From: Barthelona sp. PCE
Taxonomy: Eukaryota
NCBI GenBank assembly: GCA_040285745.1
Contig: JAUFOR010000002.1
Location: 1,054,001-1,118,000, forward strand
Direction: 5' to 3'
DNA: 64,000 nt
The translations under genes and the position numbers were made by a program. The stretch's first letter is position 1. Each line of letters starts with the position of its first letter. Under the pieces are notes generated by a model. It saw only the letters and a program-made list of their open reading frames with translations, searched no databases and was not told where the DNA came from. Of the stretch, positions 16,690 through 50,182 are shown in pieces.

Positions 16690-19332
16690 TTAACGGTTCA
16701 GATTAAGGGCACCTAACAAACGTTGGTACATACGGCTAGTGTTTCTTCCAACAGTTCTTACATGATCGTTATTAGAGAATCTGATAATATTTTTGATCCA
16801 TGGTGAAATATAGTCGTTTTCACTAAACTCTTCTGGTTTTTCTGTTCCACAAGTTGCAATAACATCTTGCAACGAATAGAAAGCACTTTCTAAGACATTA
16901 ACAGATGTGTTAACCACAATGTTGCTGACAGTCTCATAATTATCATCGGGAACAATAATATCTTCATCGAAATAATCACGAATTGGTACACTATTAAAGA
17001 TGATATCCATATAAAACTCTAGTTCATCAAGGATAACTTCAGGGCATTCTCGAAGAGCCTGCATGAAACTTGAAGCAATCTCTAACAAAGCAACCTTGAG
17101 CTCATAGACTTCATCATCATCATCAATCTCCAGTTCCATAACGCCTTGAATCTCCTTCAAGGAAGGAGCGTAATATTCTGCAAAGTCTTCTTGCATCGCA
17201 ACAGCAACGTCGCCAAAGATCGACATGAGCTTGATCTTCACCATATTACCTGCTTGTTCACTATCCATACTTTCGACTATTGTTGTGAGTATTTCTTCGA
17301 CATAGGGAACAATATTTGGACCTACAGCATCAATGATGTCCGAAAGAGAATCAGTGGTGTGATCGATGATATCGTATGAGTCAACCATACGCAAACCGCT
17401 CAAGATATAATCTTTAACAGTATCCAGATGCTCGACAAAGTCTTCCTCCAAAGCGGTTGCCAGAGGGCCCAAAACTGCAACTACTTCATCTGTGACTTCC
17501 AAAGCAGTGTCTTCGTTGTTCAGCATTTCCAGCATTAACTCCAGAATGGCGTTTGCACTGTCCAACTCCAAAACGTCCGACAACACATAGACTGTAGCCT
17601 TAATGAGGACACACATATGTGCTTGTATGTCGATATCGTCCTGCTCTGTTGCACCCATCAGATTCTTGAGTGTGTCATAGATTTTCTCCAGTACATCTTC
17701 TGCAAGATACGCCCTTCTATCAATGGCGGAAGCCTTGATCAAGTTCTCAATGGCCATAAAACATGTACCGCGGACATCAACGTTTTTAGCATCTTCAGCG
17801 GATGCGCGTTCCATAAGTGTCTCGATCAAGTCGGGAAGATAAGGCGAAAGCGCATTAGTCTCCTCGTTAGCAAAAGGAATAAATGAGTCACCAAGAGCAT
17901 AGATGACATATCCAATGTTGCACGCAATATTGTGAGGCATCTGAATAGCCTTGAGTAAAATGTTAACGATTGAAGGCAAGAACTTACCACGAACCAACTC
18001 CGGGATATGCTCTGTGATGCGACCAATGCACCAAGCAGCGGTACCCTGGAGCAAAACGAGTTCGTTGCTAACATCATCATCGATATCAGTGAAAAAAGTT
18101 AAAACGTGATCAAGGAATTGTGAAGCAAATGTTTGGGCATCTGACTCATCGATTGCAGCAATAATTGAACCGAAAATCATGATGGTAGCATACTGCTTCT
18201 CCCACTCATCTTCCTCCATGTATGCGTCAATGTACTGAAGTGCGATATCGCTTACCCCTGTCGAATAGTAGTTACTGAGCTGGATCAAACAGTTGCTGGA
18301 CGAGGCCGTGAGATTCCAAGTGTCAATGTCAACAGTGTGATCTGGCTGGGTTAGGAACTCACACAGGGTTCTTGTCAGTTGCTCAACAGAGTTAGCCAGG
18401 ATTGACAGTTTGGGATCAATGCGGTGGATGTCACTCGCCTTTGCGATGATTGTAAAGAAATCAAGGCATTGAATGATGATATCCTCAATTTCACAAGTCA
18501 AAATTTCCATGATATTTTCAACAACTGGTTGAATAAGGTCTAGAATCTCCAGATAGTAATGAGTGGTGATTTGGTTCATACACCGAATTGAAATAATGGC
18601 AGATTTTTCAGATTCTTGGAACATTTGCATCACCGATTGAACCAGTATTTCTGCTTTTTCTTTATCACCAAAGATTTCAGCAAGGAACTTAACTGAGTTC
18701 TCCAAGGCCTTTACGGCACGTTCACGGATCTTCATATCATAATCCTCACCCATACATTCAGCAAGAACCTTTGCGATATCAAAGTCAAAGTTAATGAGTG
18801 CTTGTAAAGGTGTATCCTTACAGAGATAGCCCAGTGTGTCCAGAGCGGTGCACTTATAAACATCATCATAATCACTGTTTAAGACTGATACGATGTCAGG
18901 GATGAGTGAATCCCATTTCTCATAAGGAAGCTCCATTGACCCAATTTTAGCGACCAAAACGGCGGTCATGTTACGGATATCCTTATCATCATCACCCAAA
19001 GTCATAAACAGATTTTCTTTGAATGTTGTGCGTTGCTCTTCATCTAAACTACCCCAATTGACAATTACTGTCTGGTCTTCAGGATACGCATTGAAGAACA
19101 GTGCAATTGCGGAACCAACTTCCAAACGATGATCGGCATCCAGTTCAACATCGCAGTATAGTTCACCTAGTGACTCAAAAAATTCGTCAGTCTCATCTTT
19201 TGACCATTCTACCAACTGCTCTCTGAAGGTATCATCTAAAAATTAGTTGAAAAGTACAACTATGCAAAAAAAAAATAACATACCACCTCGAATTGCTTTA
19301 CGAATGGAAGACAACAGTTCATCTCTATCCAT
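16690..19332 (-). CDS. KPNB1: Importin beta-1-like karyopherin, 2 exons (19332-19284, 19235-16690)
   Basis: HEAT repeats with AKIGSMELPYEKWDSLIP, ALDTLGYLC, TAAWCIGRI and IFGDVAVA. Spliced exon 1 supplies the ATG (MDRDELLSSIRKAIRG-DDTFREQLVEW). Confidence 0.88.
19236..19283 (-). other. 48 nt spliceosomal intron
   Basis: GTATGT...ACTAATTTTTAG on the minus strand. Removal joins ATG 19332 in frame with the importin ORF. Confidence 0.92.
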
Positions 19333-19441: not shown

Positions 19442-21190
19442 ATGTCATACGAAGAGCACAATTCCAAGTTCGATCAGGATCATGCAGCGGTCCATGATGA
19501 GATAGAGGATATTTTAACGGGCTCCAGCTTTTCTTTTGGTAGTGCACCTGTAGAAATGAAGCCGGCGGTACCAAAGGAAATCACGGACGATGTGAACACA
19601 ACACGTATGTCATAATATTGCTTAATTTCGAAGATCTAATTTTTAGAAATGAATACCCCGATAAGAACAGATACATATGAGTCTGTGGAAAGAGCACCAG
19701 AGGTAGACACCAGTAATCATCAAACTATTCTTGAAACGCCTCCCAGAGATGGGCAAGCAGAAGAATTTGCAAATCATTCAAACACGCATTTATCACCTCA
19801 TCAGAGGACCAATGAGCTCGCAGAAGCAAGGCTAACAGATTTTCTTGACCATGATGCCACAGATCTTCTTGTTGAAATTGATAATATGCATGATACCTTC
19901 ATCGAGACTGAATCACCCAAAAGAAAGCGTCCAGGTGAGCACGTGGCCGACGAGTACGTGTCCACCCCGCGGGGATTACCTGTTGAGGAGGAAGTCGATG
20001 AAGAGTTAGCCGACGCAGTAGATCAGTTGCTTGAGGAGATCAATGAACTATCGATTCGCTGTCTTTTAACTGAGGAGGAGATGATCATGCGTATGCAGAA
20101 GACAGGGTACTCCAACGATATCAGTGAAGAGAACATTGAACGTTTACTTTTGGAAAGAGAGTATCTGCGATATCGCAACAGACTGGTCAAGGGTGTCACT
20201 CAACGTGAGCATATGATGAAGGTATGGGAGAGCGCACACGGGGACATGCCATTCTCATCTGCGTCGCACAAGGCGTTTGATAAGATTAAAAAGCATTCTT
20301 TAGCATTGTTTGCAGCTATAACAAATTTTGAGAAGTCAAACACTGAGATCTTTACTGTACAAGGTATGCGTGTGTTACCTTTACTCGCAGAGTGTCTGGA
20401 AGAGGAACTTCCTACAATGTCAAGAGAGGAAAGACCATCGAAGCCGGAGTGGAGGGATACAAGTGTGATTCGAGTCGATCCAACCAAGGACTACTCTAAG
20501 TTGCGTTATTACGACAAGTATCAAGATCCCGTCCGCTGGGAGAAAACGTTGCGTAATAAGAGGTCGATGGATGATTTTAATGAGGACGAAGAAGAGGAAT
20601 CTCTTCCCATCATTACCCCTCTCAAGATCTTGTTGAAGAAACACAGGTTTATTTCATCACCCACGCGTAAGGCCCGTCACCCGAAGAAGCCGTTGGTTTT
20701 GAAGGAGCCAAAGTATAACGTCTACAACCCCTATGAGAAGGATGATACGATTATCCGGGATCGACCACTCGAGTTTGCATGGAGTGAAACGCTTCGTAGT
20801 AACCGCGCAAGATCTGTACCAAAGAAGAAGAAGAAGAAACGTGCTGCTAAGAAGATATTTGATGCTGGTTATGGATCCAAGGATTCCCCACGTAATTTGA
20901 GTGAAGCCACACAGTCAATATCACCTAGACCATTTGAAAGATCTATCCAGCGTATGAAATCAAAGTTCAGTCCCAACAAATCTCCTTCACTAACAGAATT
21001 GAAGGGTTCAATTCCAGAATCGCTTGAAAAAGCACCCACAGAATCGGATATTGCGTTAATTCGTGCTGCAGTCCATGCAGGTGACGAGATTGATGTTGAA
21101 TCAAGGGACGATGTTACTAATGCAACTATTTACAGGATTCAAATGCTGAGAAAATTGATGGAACAGGAGAATATTGAAGTAAAAGTGTAA
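19442..21190 (+). CDS. Hypothetical protein, 2 exons (19442-19604, 19647-21190), acidic then basic and disordered
   Basis: Exon 1 is open from ATG 19442 (MSYEEHNSKF...) and splices in frame to the 19649 ORF. Contains a KKKKKKR NLS-like patch. Confidence 0.8.
19605..19646 (+). other. 42 nt spliceosomal intron
   Basis: GTATGT...TCTAATTTTTAG, phase 1. Removal gives a continuous ORF. Confidence 0.9.
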
Positions 21191-34211: not shown

Positions 34212-34274
34212 TAAGTTGCTCTAACAATGAAAAAACCTGTTGTCATTTTTTCCCAACTTTTCACTTACTTGACT

Positions 34275-39066: not shown

Positions 39067-40015
39067 CTAATCAAAAGCACTTTGCAGTGAACTTTGAACA
39101 CCTTCACATGTTTGTTCTAACAAGTCTAACAGATGACGTTCATTAGTTTCACGTTCAAGTCGTTCTTTGTTGAGCTCTTGTGAAAGATTTTCTGCGAGTT
39201 CCTTGATGGAATCAGTAAGCTTTCTATTACTGTCAATTCTTTGTTCACGTTCAACTTCTAAAGCACTGGCAAGTTTACCAGTTTCTTCATCTAATTTCGC
39301 CAAAATTTGCTTGTGTGAATCCTGACGTGAAGCTTCTTCGTGTTGCAAAGACGTACGGAGTTCCTTAAACTCCATAGAAAGTGTCTCAGTTAATCCCTTA
39401 ATAGCATTTTCACGCTCACTCTTTTCAGTAGTTAACTGATGTTGGATACCTCTAGCTTGGTCCTCAACAGCCTTTGTAAAGCTATCCTTAGATGTAGAAC
39501 GTCTGTTTGCTTCTGCTTCGCGATCAGTCTCAAAAGTATGTTGCAACAATTGCAACTCACGCTCAAGACGTTCCTGAAGGATTTCTCTGCTAAGACGCTC
39601 GTCTGACAGACTCTGTTGAAGCTGGTTGACACCTTCAATTAAAAGCTTGAACTTTTGATCATCCAAAACGCTGTTCTTTGTGAACTTCTCTTGTACATCT
39701 CTAATTTTGTTCTCTAACGTTGTTTTGCGACTCTAAATGTTAGGTTATCGGGTATATAACGCATAAAATGTGTATTACAAATGCAAAAACACGTAATAAA
39801 CACGAGGAAAATCCAAAGTGTTTCAAAATCCAAAACGCAACAAAAATAATTGTTCGTTTGGCATACACAATTGCTCGTAGAGTGAGTGCGGCACTCTGAA
39901 TTACCATTAATATGCGCTATTTTTGAAATACAATGTTTTCTCTTTCGAGACCCGCTTGAAGGCGTGAAAGCTTGCTGGAGAGCTGCTGGATACGTGAGTT
40001 ACCTTCTTCTGTCAT
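39067..40015 (-). CDS. SF-assemblin/beta-giardin family protein, 2 exons (40015-39932, 39732-39067)
   Basis: Spliced N-terminus MTEEGNSRIQQLSSKLSRLQAGLERENI-SRKTTLE. Segmented coiled coil with recurrent E-x-x-x-R (ERLSRE, EKSERE, EEASRQ, EREQR, ERLERE). Confidence 0.8.
39733..39931 (-). other. 199 nt structured spliceosomal intron
   Basis: GTATTT...CCTAACATTTAG, phase 0. An 84 nt exon 1 and a 666 nt exon 2 join in frame. Confidence 0.88.
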
Positions 40016-40354
40016 TTTATAATTGATGAAAAGGGAGATAAAATACTACAAATGTTTAGAAAACGCGCATCAGTTTTACTACATCTACATGTGACTTTTA
40101 AACGGTAATTTTCACATAGATCATATCAACAACCACTAAAAAAAAACTTTAAGTCTTGCTACTCGATTTTCTAACTCCACTGAATCTGTGCTGAGCACAA
40201 TTCGTAAATTGATTCCGTTTCTTCACGTTTTTCCAGCGGTTCAAATAGATTTTCTAACCTAAAACACAAAATAAATTCCTTTATCTATACAGGTTCCATT
40301 TTTATGCTTCAATTACCATTAAACATAAATAACCCAACCAAAAATCAAAAAATA

Positions 40355-40885
40355 TTATCTGTAAGTTGCGGATTTTTGAGTAAAGTTTGGAGTAGCATCG
40401 CTAAAAAAGCCTTCATAATCTCTACTTAATGTAGCAATCGTCATAACAGAGTTCTTAGAGCTTAGTCTCACGGGAGCGTTGGGTTGTACATGTTTCCACT
40501 GATTATGTTGTGCATCTGCTTCTTCCATCACTGTTTTGCTGATGTGACTAGATGTGTATTGTTTCCTTAAATCCATTGATTTGGCAGTGACAGTGGGCTG
40601 TCTGTCTATCTTATGTGCTTGAACTTGGATGTTTGTTATGGAAAAGAAGTTTATGACGGGATTACGTGCAAAGTAATTTAAACACGATTCTAATGCCATT
40701 TGATTCAAAAATACAACAGTAATGCGGTTATGTGCAGATGAGTGAGATCGTATTTGCCCAAACTGATCAAAACAAAACCTTAAAAACACATTTTCATCCC
40801 GCTTCACATTGTATGGTGAATTTCTGTTAAAAAAAAATATATTCAACGCCATTTCGTTGGGCGTATAGCCATCTACAGGAATCAT
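40355..40885 (-). CDS. Hypothetical protein with a degenerate RRM-like segment
   Basis: 176 aa. FLRFCFDQFGQIRS...ITVVF...ALESCL follows an RRM pattern. Confidence 0.55.
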   Translation of the reverse strand: MIPVDGYTPNEMALNIFFFNRNSPYNVKRDENVFLRFCFDQFGQIRSHSSAHNRITVVFLNQMALESCLNYFARNPVINFFSITNIQVQAHKIDRQPTVTAKSMDLRKQYTSSHISKTVMEEADAQHNQWKHVQPNAPVRLSSKNSVMTIATLSRDYEGFFSDATPNFTQKSATYR

Positions 40886-41174
40886 ATTCCAGAAAGCAAG
40901 TTATAATTACGATAACGTAGTCTTTTAAAGCAGAGTCTTTTCAAGGTATTCGCCGTAGGTAAAAAGCCCAATCACCAAATTAAGTTGTAGCTAAAGAGAA
41001 GGTAGTGGTAATTGCAAATCATTTCGCATTGTTGGAATACAATTGTGGAATTTCCTTCAACCTAACGACAATTAAATCATATTGAAGACCTTAGAAAAGC
41101 AAATAAAATCAAATACTGCTTACTGTCCTGATCCACATTTTTTACCTCATTCAAACGGACTCACCACACACACA

Positions 41175-42134
41175 ATGTATTCAAGTGACTTTGATCAGGG
41201 GATTAACCAATTTTCTCGACACGGCCGAATCTATCAGCTTGAATTTGCTGTGAAATCAAGCAATGTATGATGATTGTAGAAGGGAACCCTTTTTTTCCAT
41301 GCACAACGTTATTTAAAGAAGCGATGTGCAGCTTTAAATGAATAGTGATGCTATATTATGACACAATGTCGAATAAGCACAACTTGGGCTAACACCTTTA
41401 TTTTTTATTTTGAAACTAATATTTAGCATGGAGCGACTTCAATTGGTATCCAAACTGCACAAGGTGTAGTTCTTGCAGCAGAAAAGAAAGTTGCAAGCAA
41501 ACTTATGATTGTTAAGAGGTCAGACAAGGTATCACAAATTGATGAACATTTAGGCGCCACGTTTTCTGGCCTCATGGCGGATGCCAAAACTATCATTGAG
41601 AAGCTTAGAGATGATGCATTGGAGCATAAATTCGAATTTAATGAACCATTAACAGTTCGTGCAGCAACAAAAAGTATCGTTGATGTAGCGTTGAGTTTTG
41701 GTAAGCACAAGGACTCAGACGAGGAGAGTGAGGAAGAAGACGAATATGCCATGTCAAGACCTATTGGTGTTGCAGTATTGCTGGGTGGCTGGGATAAGAA
41801 CGGTGCTTCATTGTACTGTGTTGATCCTGCAGGCATCACGACTAAGTACGATGCGAAAGTTATAGGTTCAGCTCATGAATCAGGCCAAGCTATCTTGGAA
41901 GCTGATTATTATTCATCGATTTCTCTTGAAGACGGTATCAAATTGGCATTAACAATTCTCAGAAGAGAAATGGAGCAGAGGGCCAGTGGTAATAACATTG
42001 AACTGGCTATGATCACTGAAGAAGGTTTTATCAGAATGAGTAGTGAGGAAATTGATAATATCATTAAAGAATTGGAAGATGAAGATGTTTCTGAAGAAGC
42101 AGAGCTGAGGAGAAGACTCCAAGAACAAAAATAA
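41175..42134 (+). CDS. PSMA5: 20S proteasome subunit alpha-5, 2 exons (41175-41264, 41427-42134)
   Basis: Exon 1 MYSSDFDQGINQFSRHGRIYQLEFA. Exon 2 HGATSIGI..GVVLAAEKK, SGLMADA, ALSFG and MSRPIGVAVL. Confidence 0.93.
41265..41426 (+). other. 162 nt structured spliceosomal intron
   Basis: GTATGA...ACTAATATTTAG, phase 0. Removal restores the proteasome alpha N-terminal signature. Confidence 0.93.
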
Positions 42135-42222
42135 AACATTGTTAAACTTTGTTTTGATATGTTCGATTCTATTTCTTGTGTTTCGATTTATGCACTTTTT
42201 CATTATTTAGGGTCACGTATAG

Positions 42223-43593
42223 ATGGTTAGAATCAACAATACACCGTCGAACACCAAACGTAATGGTCGTAAACCATACAAACCTGAAAAAAAAAACAAA
42301 AAAAGCAAAGGATCTACTCCTACAAGTAATTCCAGGCTTAACTTGGATACCCCACGTGTTTCTCTTCACATGGGAGGGAAGAATTATATATTAACACCTG
42401 TTACAGAGGATTTTCCTGTAACTAGTGGGGCTAGTGAGTTACAACCACTTAAATTATCACTTCCAGAGCCCGAAGAAACGAATATATCGTGCTTTTTTAT
42501 CGATATTTCATTATTCTATAAGATCGATGCTGTCCAGGTTGTTTTGTGCAAAAATAAGACATTAGAGGAAGCTAAGAATGACATCATCAGGCAGATAACG
42601 AAGATGGGATTCACAATCCCATACATAGTATACTTTTCGCAAAACAAACGACCTCTTAGTTATGAATTGCCGTTACACATGCTAGATAATGATGTTCCTC
42701 TCACACTGGAGCCATCAATCCATGCGAAACGGACGCACTCATCAACACAGATAGTATCAAGCGAGCCACCTAGGAAGTTACAAGCCTCAAGTCAAGTCTC
42801 ATTGGAAGAGCCAAGAAATCATACTGAGAGTCAGTTCGACATCCCAACGGAGTGCTCTGAGCCCGATGTGCCAGATAACAAAGATGTGGTTGTGCCAGAG
42901 ATCGAAATAACTCGAACATCCCCAACACCTATTCCAACGCTGAACAGTGCTGCTGGTATGCCAACCCCGCCGAGGGAGATGACACAGGATGAGGGTATGG
43001 TTCCTGTCCCTGAAACAGTTGCTAAGATGCCTGCAGTCATCAACGAGAGTTCAGCTTATGATGTTTATTATGAATATGAGTATGATGAGGAGGAAGAAGA
43101 GAATGTGACAGAGGCTACACCCACAGAAGAAAATGTCCTTAAAGACATTGCTCTTAAACCTGTTGAAGAGCCAACTGTGTTAAAAGACGTGGATACTAGC
43201 ATTCCTATTGAGACTGTTACTGCAGAGACAGAAGAATACGATGAGTATGACAAGGGCACAGATTCAAGTGACAGCGAGGAATCAGACATTGAAATGGAAG
43301 TATCAAAAACACCGACTTCAAGAACATTCATTGCTGAGAAGAGTACTCCAGAACCCAAAACTGCTGCTATGATCCCACCAAGGATGCCGTCGAGTGAGCT
43401 CATCCCCACACAGGTGGTTCCAAAGCAATCAATGGATATATCCGGCTTTGCTAATCTTTTTGATGCATCCCCTGCACCGCGTCGTGTTCCAACCCCAAAA
43501 GCTCCTCTGGGTGTCATTGAGCCTGTACCCAGTCCGGCTATTGTGGCTGCACAGCACAAAAAGAAACGTAGGGTTAGACGAATGACAAAATAA
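42223..43593 (+). CDS. Hypothetical protein with basic termini, a possible ubiquitin-like domain and a long acidic/Pro-rich region
   Basis: 456 aa ORF. The compact segment VQVVLCKNKTLEEAKNDI..LTLEP is ubiquitin-fold-like (weak). Confidence 0.7.
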   Translation: MVRINNTPSNTKRNGRKPYKPEKKNKKSKGSTPTSNSRLNLDTPRVSLHMGGKNYILTPVTEDFPVTSGASELQPLKLSLPEPEETNISCFFIDISLFYKIDAVQVVLCKNKTLEEAKNDIIRQITKMGFTIPYIVYFSQNKRPLSYELPLHMLDNDVPLTLEPSIHAKRTHSSTQIVSSEPPRKLQASSQVSLEEPRNHTESQFDIPTECSEPDVPDNKDVVVPEIEITRTSPTPIPTLNSAAGMPTPPREMTQDEGMVPVPETVAKMPAVINESSAYDVYYEYEYDEEEEENVTEATPTEENVLKDIALKPVEEPTVLKDVDTSIPIETVTAETEEYDEYDKGTDSSDSEESDIEMEVSKTPTSRTFIAEKSTPEPKTAAMIPPRMPSSELIPTQVVPKQSMDISGFANLFDASPAPRRVPTPKAPLGVIEPVPSPAIVAAQHKKKRRVRRMTK

Positions 43594-43654
43594 AACTGCA
43601 TTCAATTTTTTTTCTCTATTCCTTTCTGTTTTCAATTTTTATCAAACTGTATTG

Positions 43655-44902
43655 ATGTTATTCAAGGAGAAAACCTTGCTTTTAGTGTTTTCTTTAGGGT
43701 TCTTTATGTTTTTTGCGGTTCGTTTTGATAATGCAGTCCCTATTGACTTTTTTGAAGTTTTTGACAGCCAACATAATGATAATTCACAGGATTTTGAGCT
43801 TAAAATGGATTTGAATCTAACAAACAACACTCTACATACTTTTTTTGAGTCGGATTTATCATCGTTTGCAAAACATAGTAACTTCACGATTAATCAAGGT
43901 AAGTTTGAACATATAGAAAGATATTTCAGTGATAGAACCTTAATTGTGGAGGAAATTTCTGGAACTAATTATCTTGTAATTCCAAAAAATTTACAAAAGC
44001 CTTACCACGTTATCGTGGTTCAAATGGGGGACATAATAAGCGAGTGTGAATGGAGATCCGCTTTATTTGCACTAAATTTACTAACTGTTCACAAAACAAA
44101 ATTGGATATTCAAAACGTTGTTGTAGCATTCATTGACGGTGATATTGGAGCATATGAGTTCGAACGGCAGTTGAAATCCGCAGACACCTTGATCCCTGCC
44201 TTGATCGATGACTTCATCAACATCACAAATTTTTTTTGCTTAGATAAACCTCAAGTAACAATGACTAACAATGACGTCCATTTACTAAGGTCATTCAGCA
44301 AGTACTTTTCAGTGAGTAGAAATCACTCAAGATCCCTGTTTCGGCATATACCATGCGTAGCGTATTTTCAAGGTGATGGACATGCATCAGATCCTGATCC
44401 AGCTCTGCTAATGGCAACGATTGTGAAGGTTACGCAAACAAAGCATGCATTTTCTTGGTTAAACGTGTACCATAATAGATTATCAACGGAATTTCAAAAA
44501 AATAGCTTCATTTTATCTTTTTCACGAATGTCGATCATTATATCTCCTTTTTCGGTTATATTCCTTTCGATATACCTAGTTTTTCTTAGTTTCAAAGCTC
44601 TCAGAGGTACTTTAAAACCAATGAAACAAATTTACCACGTAATTGGAATAATTCAAATATGCTATCTTGGGTACAGTGCTATTTACATTCCTCTACGAAC
44701 GTGTGTTGTTCTTTTGATGACGCTACCGATGTTTAAAACTCGAGTGCATCGGAAATTCCGCTCATTCATCTTCTTCACAGAGCTTATTATCGTTTTTAAA
44801 CTCTTTTCTACATCTTTTAAAAGCCTTTTTGTATGCGAATATCTTCTATTTCTTACAATTATATGTTGGGCAAGACCCAGAAAATTTATCAATAGAAGCT
44901 AA
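43655..44902 (+). CDS. Membrane protein (N-terminal TM, luminal domain, 3-4 C-terminal TMs), possibly Gaa1/M28-like
   Basis: Topology from hydrophobicity. NVVVAFIDGDIGAYEF resembles an M28-fold strand-helix; the family call is weak. Confidence 0.55.
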   Translation: MLFKEKTLLLVFSLGFFMFFAVRFDNAVPIDFFEVFDSQHNDNSQDFELKMDLNLTNNTLHTFFESDLSSFAKHSNFTINQGKFEHIERYFSDRTLIVEEISGTNYLVIPKNLQKPYHVIVVQMGDIISECEWRSALFALNLLTVHKTKLDIQNVVVAFIDGDIGAYEFERQLKSADTLIPALIDDFINITNFFCLDKPQVTMTNNDVHLLRSFSKYFSVSRNHSRSLFRHIPCVAYFQGDGHASDPDPALLMATIVKVTQTKHAFSWLNVYHNRLSTEFQKNSFILSFSRMSIIISPFSVIFLSIYLVFLSFKALRGTLKPMKQIYHVIGIIQICYLGYSAIYIPLRTCVVLLMTLPMFKTRVHRKFRSFIFFTELIIVFKLFSTSFKSLFVCEYLLFLTIICWARPRKFINRS

Positions 44903-46249
44903 CTAATGTTCACTGATATAACTGAATGGGATAGTCGATGTCATCTTATCGACAGGTATTGAACGATATTCTTCACTATGTCCATCGTCTGCGATGATAT
45001 ATACACTTGGTAAAAAATATTGGACTTCTTCATACTGAAGATTAGTGTGCCTGACATCAATGCATTCTAAGGCTTTTAGTTGAACTAGAAATTCCTTGAG
45101 AATCCTTGGATTTATATTCATATGATGAAGTGTTAAGTGTTTGAGGTTCGGGCATTGTCTAACTATCAACGATACTATAGTAGCATCATGTGTAAATGTA
45201 CAAGAGTCAATCTCAAAGTATTCAAGCGTACTGGGTATATCTGCAATCATGGAATTATCAAGTTGTAGATGGGATAACAACAAACTTACTAGAGGGATGT
45301 GGAATAGGCTTACCAGAAGCACATCCTTAAGATTGACAAGAGAGAGATGACGGAGCTTCTTCATATGTACTAACTGATCGATATCATCTTCGGTCACCGA
45401 CAACTGACTCAAACCAAGCTTTTCGATGTTTGGGCTCAGTGAAATAACCTTCAACGACTTTGTTTTCAAGCGAGGGCAGTTGTCCAGGCCAATATACTTG
45501 AGACCTTGATTACTCAACAAAATGTGTGCGATAGCTTTGTGAGTAATGATACAGTTATTTAAAAAGAGTCCCTTCAATACTGTGGTGCTGGCGAGTAAAC
45601 TCAACAAAACATCGTCGCTAACTGATGCGCCTGCACATATTAAAACATCTTGTAAGCTTGTTAAGTGTGAGCCTGCGAATATTAAGCTCTCTCTGCTGAT
45701 TGCTGATATGTTGCGGAGATCGAGCGTGTGCACTTGGCTGAGGCGGTTGATAATATCCAATACATCATCTGCTGAAGCGTTCTCCGTTAATAATTGTAAA
45801 TCTGGTAATAAATGAGCTGCTTTCTTTTCACTCTGGTAACTGTCTGCGAAGAAGTTGATAAGAAGGGAGCGTGAGTAATCGCTGACAGCAAATTTATCAA
45901 GTATACCATTTGCAATACCTAAAAATCGCTTTGAAACTAATCTAAGCTTCGGTATCGTCTCAGGGCCCGCCTGCACTATGAGTTCGCGAATAACTGAATC
46001 CGGAAGATCGTTAATACTGGATATACGATTCAAACCTACTAATTTCACATCATTGAGTAGTTTTTCTCCAGATACACTGAAAGACTCGCACGCGCGCGCG
46101 ACTAGGTTGCCCATTGTTGCAAGAAAAGCATGATAGTGCTCATCTTCTGAATGAATATGACTACCAGAATGTAAATTACGTTTTGCGTTTCTTTGAGCAT
46201 TGGATATTCTCGAAAATGGTGAGAGCTCTTCTCTCTCCCGTTTTGACAT
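44903..46249 (-). CDS. F-box/LRR protein (FBXL-like)
   Basis: F-box SINDLPDSVIRELI..LRLVSKRF followed by cysteine-containing LRRs. Confidence 0.85.
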   Translation of the reverse strand: MSKREREELSPFSRISNAQRNAKRNLHSGSHIHSEDEHYHAFLATMGNLVARACESFSVSGEKLLNDVKLVGLNRISSINDLPDSVIRELIVQAGPETIPKLRLVSKRFLGIANGILDKFAVSDYSRSLLINFFADSYQSEKKAAHLLPDLQLLTENASADDVLDIINRLSQVHTLDLRNISAISRESLIFAGSHLTSLQDVLICAGASVSDDVLLSLLASTTVLKGLFLNNCIITHKAIAHILLSNQGLKYIGLDNCPRLKTKSLKVISLSPNIEKLGLSQLSVTEDDIDQLVHMKKLRHLSLVNLKDVLLVSLFHIPLVSLLLSHLQLDNSMIADIPSTLEYFEIDSCTFTHDATIVSLIVRQCPNLKHLTLHHMNINPRILKEFLVQLKALECIDVRHTNLQYEEVQYFLPSVYIIADDGHSEEYRSIPVDKMTSTIPFSYISEH

Positions 46250-46640
46250 TAAAAAATTTAGATTTAGATAAGATGGATGTTAAATCACAAAACAAAATAA
46301 TTACAAAGAGCTATATCACTTCATGCGTTAAATGTATATAAATAAGTCCTATGGCCGGATATAATATCCTTAACTCAAACACATACCCCAAAAAATCTGC
46401 AGGTTAAATCCCAGACTCTAAACGTCCTATTAAATAGCTTTTACATTTGTAAGTCTGAGATACATGCTCACACAATAGCACACCAGCCAGAAACATCATT
46501 GCAAAGTAGTGATAGTGATTTATTAGTACTCTGAGCTGTTGAACAAACTTGAAACGCAGCATCTACTCATCTTCATTCGGCCTGACATCATTTAAAAAGT
46601 GAAAAATCGTTACTTTGCGATATTCAACCCTATTCATTTG

Positions 46641-47807
46641 ATGTTCAACATTCTTAAGTCCTTCGGGCAACCAGCAGAGGAAACAAAGCCTGCGGAGCAG
46701 TTCGCAATGGGAGAAATCAGTCATCAAGGGCTGGTCGATTTTGTTAATGGTTTTAAGGATTCTAAAGTGCCTGTTTCAGAAGAATTAATCACTAGCCTTG
46801 GTCTTTTCCGCGATGAGATGATGAAGCTTCCCAACGTTGTACGTTTTGAGATTAAAGAAGCAGATCAGAAAGCAGTACTTGTTGGTGATCTGCATGGTCG
46901 TTATTTTGACCTTGTTCAGATTTTAGAGTACTACAACATACTTGAGGAGCCTGAGAAGATGCCTTACATTGTATTCAATGGTGATTTTGTTGATAGAGGA
47001 TACTATTCACTTGCTACTGTTGCTACTCTTGTGTATCTCAGGCATTTGTATCCTGGCAAGGTGTTTTTGAACAGAGGAAACCACGAAAGTGCTTATGCCA
47101 CTGTTTTATACGGTTTCAAATCACAGTTGATGCGTGATTACTCTGAAGAAGAAGGAAACGATATTTATAACGAGTTTCTGACTGTTTTCTACGCCCTCCC
47201 TTTGATCACCGTTGTACACGATTCCATTGCTGTTATTCACGGTGGTCTGAGCGTAAAAGCTGCTAATTTACCTGATGACTCTCCAAGAATTCAGGAAGGT
47301 AACGTCTCTTACCTAGACATTTGTCACACTTTGGGTGAAATTAACGCAATTAACAGATTCGGAGAGCCTGATTCCTGCCTCATTGTTGACAATTTGCTTT
47401 GGAGCGATCCTTCAGATTTGAATGAAGGAGCTCTCCAGCCCAGTTCTCGTGGTATGTCTTATCTCTTCCCTGGTAACTACACACGTCAGTTCCTGGACGC
47501 TAACAACCTAAAGATGCTTGTGCGTTCTCATGAATTGGTCAAAGAGCCTCGTAAGCAACATGAAGGCGTTTGTGTCACTGTTTTTAGTGCCGCTACCTAT
47601 GCAATGGAAGACAATGAAGGTTTTGTTTTAGAATTTACACAATCCTCTATTGATAACTATGAATTACCTCAGTTTGAATCTATTTATTTCCCTAGAGCAG
47701 ATGAACCAGGAGGAATTCATCCAGACCATAATCCTTTTATGACAATGCCTCCTTTGATTCAATTATTGTTAGCTCAACAGATGCAACCAATGCAGGGATC
47801 AGAATGA
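46641..47807 (+). CDS. PPP-family Ser/Thr phosphatase (PP5/PPEF-type catalytic domain, no TPR or EF-hand)
   Basis: Motifs GDLHG, FNGDFVDRG, NRGNHE, HGG, LLWSDP, RSHE and TVFSA. Confidence 0.92.
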   Translation: MFNILKSFGQPAEETKPAEQFAMGEISHQGLVDFVNGFKDSKVPVSEELITSLGLFRDEMMKLPNVVRFEIKEADQKAVLVGDLHGRYFDLVQILEYYNILEEPEKMPYIVFNGDFVDRGYYSLATVATLVYLRHLYPGKVFLNRGNHESAYATVLYGFKSQLMRDYSEEEGNDIYNEFLTVFYALPLITVVHDSIAVIHGGLSVKAANLPDDSPRIQEGNVSYLDICHTLGEINAINRFGEPDSCLIVDNLLWSDPSDLNEGALQPSSRGMSYLFPGNYTRQFLDANNLKMLVRSHELVKEPRKQHEGVCVTVFSAATYAMEDNEGFVLEFTQSSIDNYELPQFESIYFPRADEPGGIHPDHNPFMTMPPLIQLLLAQQMQPMQGSE

Positions 47808-47974
47808 TTAGAAAGAAAAAATTATAGCAAAATAAAAAAAAATAAAAAAAAATGAATTTAGTTTTATTTATTTTCAGTTTTGAATCCAATTCAATAACTT
47901 GAAAGTTTTGGGGGGTTTTGGGGTGGATTAATATGGTTGAAAAGCATTAAATTACATAATGTAAAGAAAAAATT

Positions 47975-48845
47975 CTACTCTTCAAATAACAGTGTGCAAC
48001 ATGGACTGTTGCAGTTGGATCTACGTCGATAATTATCAACTTGATCGATATCTTGATCAATTCCTTGAAATAAAGGTGTTGAAATAGAACGATCACGAAT
48101 ACGATATGATAAAAAGGGGGAAAACTCTCCCTCACTTGATCCAGTACTTGCTTCAAAACACGGTGACATGTTATCTTCAGACTCAGTCTCTGCTTCAGTG
48201 CACTCAAAATTAAAAGCTAAAGGATGAGTTTCAGTAAGTGAACGTAAACGGCGAGGATGCATGGGGGAATCAATACCATTGGAAAAAGAATTGGAACGTA
48301 ATATGCGATAGCTGCTGTGGTGCTCGCGGTCACAACAGTGAGCAATTTGCTCAAATTCACCATCATCCTGAGTAATATAGCCACCATTGCAATGCTCAGG
48401 GTATAACTCATAGAAACGTCTATATCCTCCCTCAAGAATGCCACAGTGCTCAAATTTTTGGAGACCAAACTCAGAGAATTCTGTACAAGTTCTTCTATCA
48501 AGATCAATAAATGTCTTCAATGTTTTAGGCCCTCTCTTTTGAGAATATTCACAATGAAAGACGAGTAACCACTCACTGTCAATTTCTCCGTTCTCAAAAA
48601 AGTCATGCAGTTCATCTTTCTTCCAGATGTGATGAGCTCCAGCAATATGCCCACCTTCAAACTCGTATGGGTAACGACAGTCAATAATCGCCGTCTTATG
48701 CATGCAGAAGACTTCATGTTCACCATTAAGTACCAAAGCAAGCTAAATGTAAGGAAATTATATTTCAAAAAAATCATACGTCTTCGGGAGAGATTACTCT
48801 GCTTGATTCTGTCAGTGAGCATGAGCTATATGTAATGGGTTCCAT
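47975..48845 (-). CDS. CDC25: Cdc25-type dual-specificity phosphatase, 2 exons (48845-48780, 48742-47975)
   Basis: IIDCRYPYEFEGGHIAGA, active site FHCEYSQKRGP and ILEGGY. Splicing restores RVISPED-LALVLNG. Confidence 0.93.
48743..48779 (-). other. 37 nt spliceosomal intron
   Basis: GTATGA...CCTTACATTTAG, phase 0, joining ATG 48845 in frame. Confidence 0.9.
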
Positions 48846-49185
48846 ATTTTTGAAAGAAACCCACTAAGAAATGTATAAAAGCCAATACACTTTCAACTAT
48901 GTATGCTCAATATTGCGCATGTTGATTCTGCGTTCTACCATCATAAATGAGCGAATCTCCAGCATCCAAATACGTGTAAATTTTACAAGACAGAAGCTTC
49001 ATCAGATTGAATTTTTGCCAAACCAATGGGCTCTAAACGCTTCAGTCATGCCAAAAATGGATAATTGTTCAATTTTGTTGTTATCAGATAAAAACAGTTA
49101 AAACTACACTACAGCACAATAAAATAGATGCCTCGGAATAAACAATGCTATCTCTGCAGTACAAATACGAAAAAAAGTACAGATC

Positions 49186-49362
49186 TTGTAAGAATATTTA
49201 ATAATTCGATTCTGAATATTCTACAATAATATAATCCATTGATATGTCGGTTTAGTTCAATTGTACCCGAGTGCATTGTACTAAACAGTGTATAAAATAA
49301 GCAAACGTGTAGAATTTCTTTTGCATAAGGATAACCCGGTTTATGTGGTTTAGTACATTGCA
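49186..49362. ncRNA. Candidate structured non-coding element (tandem hairpins)
   Basis: Inverted repeats at 49186-49226 and 49250-49286, plus a third arm copy at 49348-49362, in the largest ORF-free gap. Confidence 0.3.
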
Positions 49363-49571
49363 TATAGATTCTTTAACGGTTATTTTTTGAAAAAAAACAG
49401 AGCACTCATGGAGTATATGTTTTCAACCTTCTTTTCAATAAATGCGCAAAAAAGAAATACAATCGATCTTTCAAAAGGATCATTAGTCACTACGCACAAA
49501 TATTGAGCCAGAAATACTGCCAGAAAAAAATGTTTGATTTACTAGTTATCCTATTCGTTTTTCGGCACAGA

Positions 49572-50182
49572 TTACTGCCACATGATGTCTCTGTTACTTT
49601 CAGATACACGCTCATCCATGAACTCCCAATCATATCTTGCATACTGACCAGTAGGAACATTAGTACCTTCTTCAATAGCCTTACGTACCTGAGCACGTGA
49701 CTCTTCATACATCTGCTTTGAAGGACCAATGGGAAGCTCAAACTCTATATCACAATGAGGACAAAAAGCATCTGCTTCTTCATCAAAATCCAAAACATCA
49801 ACTCTGAATGTTTTCTTACAATCTCTGCACACGAGAGCGACCTCGTTGTGAATGTTCATTGAGTGATCTTCTGCACTATCATGACTAAATGTGAATAAAA
49901 AAATTTTTTAAAGTTTGTGAATAAAAAAAAGTATAACACACATGAAGCGCACTACAATATCGTGTACCAAACGCACTAATGATCTGGTTGATAACTGATT
50001 CAACATCATTAATCAAGAGATGAAAAAATGAATGTTCTTCAATGCAGCACCTTAAATTCTTCAATGAATGGACATTGGTCATCACAACTTTATGTATAAA
50101 CATGCCAAAAAATACATGGATACCATTTCTTGCAGCATGGTGTTCTGAGATTAACCTTATTATCTGGGAAGTGATCGCACAT
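49572..50182 (-). CDS. Small CHY zinc-finger protein, 2 exons (50182-50106, 49884-49572)
   Basis: Spliced product MCDHFPDNKVNLRTPCCKKWYPCIFCHDSAEDH...CRDCKKTF...FCPHCD is a complete CHY pattern. Confidence 0.88.
49885..50105 (-). other. 221 nt structured GC-AG spliceosomal intron
   Basis: GCATGT...ATTCACATTTAG, phase 2. Only this donor restores the frame and the CxxCH motif. Confidence 0.82.

Follow-up and report, generated by a model that had tools for sequence, protein, structure and literature searches.

Whether the long introns of Barthelona sp. PCE fold back on themselves to the length of the short ones is the question raised by a 64,000-nt stretch of its genome (the window: positions 1,054,001 to 1,118,000 of the forward strand of contig JAUFOR010000002.1, assembly GCA_040285745.1; all positions below are counted from its first letter). 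Six introns of 37, 42, 48, 162, 199 and 221 nt occur in the window, all of them present at the lengths claimed by a first-pass annotation of this DNA, as checked by reading frame. That annotation also proposed that each of the three long introns is folded back by a closing stem. The proposal holds strongly for the 199-nt intron, whose stem is clearly beyond chance, and moderately for the 221-nt intron, whose stem is marginally so. It fails for the 162-nt intron, evidence that not every long intron has a strong single closure. That a closing helix of this kind would serve splicing in the long introns is given a probability of about 0.5.

In all six cases an ATG-initiated first exon of 49–163 nt is joined in frame to a long open frame, and the unspliced reading hits a stop within a few codons. 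Introns are scarce, with six among the 39 listed open reading frames (ORFs) of at least 150 aa, and all are found near the 5' end of the gene. The 5' splice sites are of an extended, near-invariant type, reading GUAUG[AU] in four of the six and GUAUUU and GCAUGU in one each. The 3' ends read YUNAY-WUUUAG in every case, which puts the presumed branch adenosine 7 nt before the end of the intron. A strict form of this motif, [ACT]TNA[CT][AT]T[TC]TAG, has only seven matches in the 64 kb; six of the seven are the ends of these introns, directly before a long open frame. Judged from their sequence, the six are spliceosomal introns of the reduced-metamonad type known from Giardia, Spironucleus and Trichomonas.

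The 199-nt intron (39733-39931, minus strand, phase 0, GUAUUU...CCUAACAUUUAG) interrupts an SF-assemblin-like gene with exon 1 at 39932-40015 and exon 2 at 39067-39732. The protein spliced in silico aligns to distant SF-assemblin-like homologues from residue 5–8 and remains colinear over the junction at residues 28/29, with higher bit scores than exon 2 alone (for the homologue P0124, for example, 92.3 versus 68.5). Several of these homologues match Pfam SF-assemblin, and the product itself scores 30.4 bits, just under the cutoff of 30.6. The 162-nt intron (41265-41426, plus strand, phase 0, GUAUGA...ACUAAUAUUUAG) lies in a proteasome alpha-subunit gene. The peptide of its exon 1 (41175-41264, 30 codons) matches Proteasome_A_N with an E-value of 3.8e-6, and exon 2 matches Proteasome from profile position 3. 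The 221-nt intron (49885-50105, minus strand, phase 2) is read here as of the GC-AG type (GCAUGU...UUCACAUUUAG) and belongs to a small CHY-zinc-finger-like gene with exon 1 at 50106-50182 and exon 2 at 49572-49884; its boundaries are discussed below.

Little or no structure is predicted for the short introns (n=3, one window). The shortest, of 37 nt (48743-48779, minus strand, phase 0, GUAUGA...CUUACAUUUAG), occurs in a Cdc25-like rhodanese gene, where the frame and the rhodanese domain support it. That of 42 nt (19605-19646, plus strand, phase 1, GUAUGU...CUAAUUUUUAG) occurs in a gene without assigned function and is supported by the frame, the 3' motif and an in-frame join. The 48-nt intron (19236-19283, minus strand, phase 1, GUAUGU...CUAAUUUUUAG) lies in an importin-beta-like gene and is supported by the frame and by TPR_IMB1 in exon 2. 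Their minimum free energies (MFE) are 0.0, 0.0 and -1.4 kcal/mol, respectively.

The long introns were folded both freely and with the splice sites held open. In the latter case the 7 nt at the 5' end and the 12 nt at the 3' end were forced to be unpaired, the procedure given in the methods of Hudson 2019 (PMC6679479); for the controls only the interior was shuffled. For the 199- and 221-nt introns, the helices of the constrained MFE structures are identical to those indicated in the first-pass annotation. The stem of the 199-nt intron pairs 39920-39911 (intron nt 12-21) with 39765-39756 (nt 167-176) in 10 bp, one of them G-U, and leaves 11+23 = 34 free nt. Both the MFE and the centroid structure contain it, and its mean pair probability in the free ensemble at 37 C is 0.98. 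An inner helix of 11 bp (39902-39892/39820-39810) extends this closing rod inward and encloses more hairpins. The stem of the 221-nt intron joins 50092-50082 (intron nt 14-24) to 49920-49909 through 7+4 bp with a single bulged A, so that 13+24 = 37 nt stay free. It occurs in the centroid and not in the free MFE structure, and its mean pair probability is 0.70 in the free ensemble, rising to 0.86 with the splice sites held open.

The closure described earlier for the 162-nt intron (AAGG/CCTT and CCC/GGG, leaving about 43 nt) fares differently. A GAAGG/CCUUU closure with 41 free nt appears only in the MFE structure with the splice sites held open. This closure is not supported, because its pair probability in the free ensemble is only 0.06, and in all closure tests it is indistinguishable from the controls. 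The looped-out parts were said to hold 2–4 hairpins each; the constrained MFE structures contain 2 and 3 in two of the introns and 5 in the other.

When compared with controls, the 199-nt intron stands out. Its free MFE has a z-score of -2.28 against 200 shuffles, 4/200 being as good. Among 2000 shuffles 0.8% attain the duplex energy of its stem, and among 2000 random window segments 3% do so, that is, p of 0.008 and 0.03 for the best duplex of the 5'- and 3'-proximal segments. The same duplex p values are 0.27 and 0.42 for the 221-nt intron and 0.40 and 0.56 for the 162-nt intron. A sharper statistic is the ensemble probability of exactly one exterior helix with 30–50 free nt, with the splice sites held open. 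This single-closure probability is 0.98 for the 199-nt, 0.82 for the 221-nt and 0.14 for the 162-nt intron, and the control mean is 0.12–0.14. The observed values are reached by 0/150, 1/150 and 49/150 shuffles, respectively, and by 2/200, 8/200 and 52/200 controls whose interiors are random window segments. A Fisher combination over the three long introns yields p 0.002 versus shuffles and 0.008 versus the genomic controls, for a statistic that was picked after the structures were seen and with only three long introns to which it applies.

That choice of statistic and the small number of introns weigh against a role of the helices in splicing, as do a number of other results. By free MFE the 221-nt intron is no better than its shuffles (z-score +0.26, 117/200 as good), and neither is the 162-nt intron (z-score -1.44, 14/200 as good), so that of the three long introns only the 199-nt one shows the greater stability over shuffled sequence that was anticipated for the class. 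The 221-nt stem has an unremarkable duplex energy, equalled by 27% of 2000 shuffles, and the interior of this intron taken alone is no more structured than shuffles (z-score +0.39). At 20 C its single-closure value is matched by 8/150 shuffles. The public gene model sets its 5' boundary elsewhere. Splice sites are not clearly more accessible than those of shuffles, apart from the 3' end of the 199-nt intron (10/300). The 162-nt intron, which matches controls in every test, has no supported closure at all.

The spacing itself proves to be uninformative. The first-pass annotation took a clustering of effective lengths at 35–45 nt as a sign that the spliceosome measures this distance. Shuffled interiors, however, reproduce it, with means of 34.3, 32.0 and 34.1 unpaired exterior nt for the 199-, 221- and 162-nt introns (standard deviation 8–9), and 54–60% of them fall within 30–50 unpaired nt. 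Since shuffled interiors give the same spacing, agreement with the short class does not count as evidence. The 32–34 free nt in shuffles can be traced to a general property of RNA, the proximity of its two ends (Yoffe et al., PMC3017586).

These observations also suggest another reading, in which the helices are incidental. Any RNA of 160–220 nt and such composition would leave its ends ~30–40 unpaired nt apart, and long introns would be tolerated without specific closure. The shuffled spacing fits this reading, as do the two long introns of three (221 and 162 nt) that are no more stable than shuffles, the ordinary duplex energy of the 221-nt stem, and the location of the closure-free 162-nt intron in a conserved proteasome gene. 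The published precedent gives it some room as well. The main text of Hudson 2019 (PMC6679479) contains none of the strings 'shuffl-', 'randomi-', 'by chance', 'covariation' or 'compensatory', and to that extent carries no such chance control. Incidental folding does not account for the 199-nt intron, which beats controls on every measure, nor readily for a single dominant closure at 0.98 and 0.82 when the control mean is as low as 0.12–0.14. Generic closeness of RNA ends (PMC3017586) covers the free nucleotides of shuffles, but not one dominant, position-specific 10-bp helix at 0.98 such as that of the 199-nt intron. On balance, incidental folding is a real possibility, if short of probable. 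That shuffled sequences meet the quoted single-stranded distance is in any case a caution for claims of this kind, published ones included, which need ensemble and covariation tests.

Where the 221-nt intron begins is a separate question, and its answer is no alternative to the readings considered here. The public model of this gene, PCE1_000900 (P0121, 126 aa), starts at an ATG inside the 221-nt stretch and removes only 57 nt (49885-49941, GUGUGU...AG). The two introns use the same 3' site and differ in their 5' sites, and the exon-2 protein is 100% identical to PCE1_000900. If the 57-nt GT-AG intron were the real one, with translation from the internal ATG, the 5' arm of the stem would fall in the leader or in upstream DNA, and fold-back would play no part in the CHY gene. 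In favour of this model, the annotation pipeline of the Barthelona genome used RNA-seq mapping (PMC11316075), P0121 joins at that shared 3' site, and GUGUGU opens with a canonical GU where the longer intron requires GC. The domain evidence points the other way. The 25 codons of the upstream exon 1 match positions 1-22 of the 68 of zf-CHY (E 5.3e-6), and the C-x2-C-H-D motif of the CHY finger is rebuilt over the 221-nt junction; both the frame and this motif need the GC start at 50105. P0121 has no zf-CHY match, and no family is matched in its first 26 residues. GCAUGU and GUGUGU are each one position off the GUAUGU consensus, and in the 221-nt fold a 10-bp hairpin sequesters the GUGUGU site. 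Because of the zf-CHY match in exon 1, the GC-AG reading is favoured over the 57-nt intron and is probably correct, mis-delimitation being rather unlikely. PCE1_000900 accordingly looks like a probable mis-annotation in view of the GC-AG intron, which would have been missed with loss of the N-terminal half of the CHY zinc finger.

Two other 5' sites for this intron, GUUUAU at 50101 and GUAUUU at 50115, were rejected as out of frame with exon 2. A search of solved structures gave 0 matches for exon 1 of the CHY gene and chance-level matches only for exon 2 (best E 0.032, to an unrelated collagenase). The hairpin that buries GUGUGU pairs 49956-49947 with 49941-49932 on the minus strand, and it may be speculated that it suppresses this site as a cryptic one. 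The intron also carries a 14-nt direct repeat (seven T, then ATTCACA) at 49929-49916 and 49903-49890 on the minus strand. Of the two copies, the second forms the actual branch/3' region, and the first resembles a decoy and overlaps the 3' arm of the closing stem. An ATG-to-stop ORF of 72 codons (49885-50103, minus strand) covers nearly the whole intron in a frame different from that of exon 1, and is probably due to chance.

The looped-out portions were earlier seen as tolerated cargo, such as non-coding RNAs or regulatory domains. This idea finds no backing in either Rfam, which has no match in them at gathering score, or the window, which holds no copies of them. It would imply that the long introns host a functional RNA, either snoRNA-like (small nucleolar RNA) or a regulatory element, with the closing stem as its terminal or processing stem. 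The 199-nt interior alone is indeed more structured than shuffles (z-score -2.02, 4/200 as good), mostly through the 11-bp extension of the closing rod. In addition, box C-like strings containing UGAUGA are found near the 5' side of the 162-nt intron (41267-41273, plus strand) and of the 221-nt intron (50081-50087, minus strand). However, no box D partner was seen for these strings, no CUGA adjoins the 3' arms, and Rfam gives no snoRNA match. Over the whole window Rfam gives 0 matches at gathering score, and those in or near the introns have E-values of 0.78–9 with bit scores far below the gathering scores. The 221-nt interior is also no more ordered than its shuffles, and the introns resemble one another in their splice motifs only. 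A hosted RNA is thus considered improbable.

Still less probable is an origin from a small mobile element that inserted into a once-short intron and whose terminal inverted repeats became the arms of the stem, which would then be a relic of that event rather than a device for splicing. The arrangement is suggestive of this in that inverted repeats of 10–11 bp flank ~150–170 nt of unrelated sequence in two introns, and what remains is of short-intron length. Against it, the arms lack flanking direct (target-site) duplications, neither interior has a second copy in the 64-kb window or any similarity to the other, and the published genome is only 4.46% repetitive (PMC11316075).

The reading given a probability of about one half, in which the closing helix serves splicing, would operate as follows. 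The 199-nt intron has, and the 221-nt intron probably has, a long-range helix that starts 11–13 nt past the 5' splice site and ends 23–24 nt before the 3' end. By looping out ~150–170 nt and leaving 34 and 37 free nt, this helix would keep the 5' site about as far from the fused branch/3' site as in a short intron. A pared-down spliceosome could then pair the two. The thermodynamic dominance of the two helices is shown by the present analysis, as are the introns and their signals; that the helices are selected and required for splicing we infer.

Folding of this kind has a parallel in yeast, where pairing between the regions of the 5' splice site and the branch point shortens the effective distance in long introns. 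As in Barthelona, intramolecular helices bring the 5' site and branch point closer in an intron-poor genome with strict signals. Yeast differs in having a branch point that stands apart from the 3' site and a less reduced spliceosome, and its lineage is unrelated.

The closest known systems are found among metamonads. After base pairing, spatial distances between the splice sites are reported as 35–45 nt in Giardia, ~41 nt in Spironucleus and 25–44 nt in Trichomonas (Hudson 2019, PMC6679479). Giardia shares with Barthelona the rare introns, the strict 5' site and the presence of short and long classes, and base pairing in its long introns is said to bring the splice sites to the distance just given (PMC6679479). 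In Giardia, too, branch point and 3' site are fused into one signal, CTRACACRCAG, whose adenosine lies 7 nt before the intron end (PMC6679479). The Barthelona counterpart is CUAAYWUUUAG, so that a tail of ACRCAG stands against the AU-rich WUUUAG. Pairing in Giardia is described as extensive (PMC6679479), whereas the Barthelona stems are short at 10–11 bp. Giardia also has trans-spliced introns, of which none was seen in the Barthelona window, and one of the three long Barthelona introns is without supported closure. Furthermore, Barthelona is free-living and belongs to another clade.

In Spironucleus vortens and S. salmonicida the branch and 3' motifs are again fused, the introns again lie near the 5' ends of genes, and a short class of ~40–43 nt occurs alongside longer introns in which short stem-loops restore ~41 nt (PMC6679479). 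The introns range only from 40 to 67 nt, in contrast to the 162–221 nt of the long class in Barthelona, and their consensus, GTAAGTY...RCTAACAARHTAG, is one base longer after the branch point (PMC6679479). Introns of Trichomonas vaginalis fall into a uniformly short group and a group of more than 50 nt with extended stem-loops, and measure 25–44 nt when folded (median 37 nt). Their short class is ~25 nt (PMC6679479), against 37–48 nt in Barthelona, and the organism is a parabasalid and more distant. The genetic code provides another difference, as TAA and TAG encode glutamine in Spironucleus while the Barthelona window uses standard stops.

Barthelona lies outside the diplomonads. Together with the skoliomonads it forms the BaSk clade, which is sister to Fornicata (PMC11316075), although NCBI taxonomy lists it as a metamonad genus of uncertain placement. 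The genome of strain PCE comprises 10.2 Mb in 8 contigs with 40.3% GC and 4.46% repeats, the smallest reported among free-living eukaryotes (PMC11316075). In the main text of the genome paper introns are mentioned only under gene-prediction methods (PMC11316075), and a literature search on Barthelona introns or a barthelonid spliceosome found the intron structure of barthelonids in no paper among the matches listed. What is new here is the lineage, that is, a free-living organism with an extremely small genome and a position as sister to Fornicata, for which the statistical support of the fold-back is modest; the fold-back model itself has already been published for Giardia, Spironucleus and Trichomonas (Hudson 2019, PMC6679479).

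If the helices do serve splicing, structure-assisted splicing and the fused branch/3' signal would no longer be confined to parasitic diplomonads and trichomonads but would reach into a free-living lineage, and would represent an old shared constraint of reduced spliceosomes rather than a by-product of parasitism. A much stronger version of this reading, which is doubtful, would have a spliceosome with a hard limit of ~30–40 nt on the distance from the 5' site to the fused branch/3' site, such that long introns survive only if a helix or equivalent fold restores the spacing. Given the position of barthelonids as the sister group of Fornicata, both the ruler and the fused-signal type of intron would then be ancestral to Fornicata and BaSk, perhaps to parabasalids too, and no parasite-specific oddity. 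The fold of the 221-nt intron would in this version hide both the cryptic GUGUGU and the decoy branch region, and structure would therefore choose the splice sites.

A search for further introns in the window by relaxed motif-plus-frame scans returned matches mostly inside continuous ORFs. Hidden introns were also considered at ORFs without an early ATG (2618, 13187, 21197 and 53639), each of which has a nearby ATG in a normal start context. One 48-nt candidate upstream of a 711-aa ORF (34221-34268, minus strand, GUAAGU...UUCAUUGUUAG) is without the WUUUAG tail and is followed by a normal-looking start, and is probably spurious.

The SF-assemblin-like protein (39067-40015, minus strand) has no 100% match in either of two protein searches, unlike the other window proteins that were searched, and its gene may be absent from the public annotation. 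A word-index protein search with it gave no match at E <= 0.001, and a metagenome scan gave 219 pattern matches with no relative among them. Elsewhere in the window, a PP5-like phosphatase (46599-47807, plus strand) consists of the catalytic domain without the TPR region that is present in most of the matches listed. A paralogue with 48% identity, PCE1_000899, likewise lacks TPR.

The window has a GC content of 35–48% and is gene-dense under the standard code, with its 39 ORFs of at least 150 aa near-tiling. Both its base composition and the compactness of its genes agree with the published 10.2-Mb genome of 40.3% GC. A code in which TAA and TAG specify glutamine was rejected: it gives 94 ORFs in place of 39 and fuses neighbouring genes across their boundaries, and the standard code was used for this reason. 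Gene packing is extreme. The stop codons of convergent genes lie 0–6 nt apart and divergent starts only 73 nt apart, the tight junctions being 44902/44903, 32053/32058, 21190/21197 and 1640/1714.

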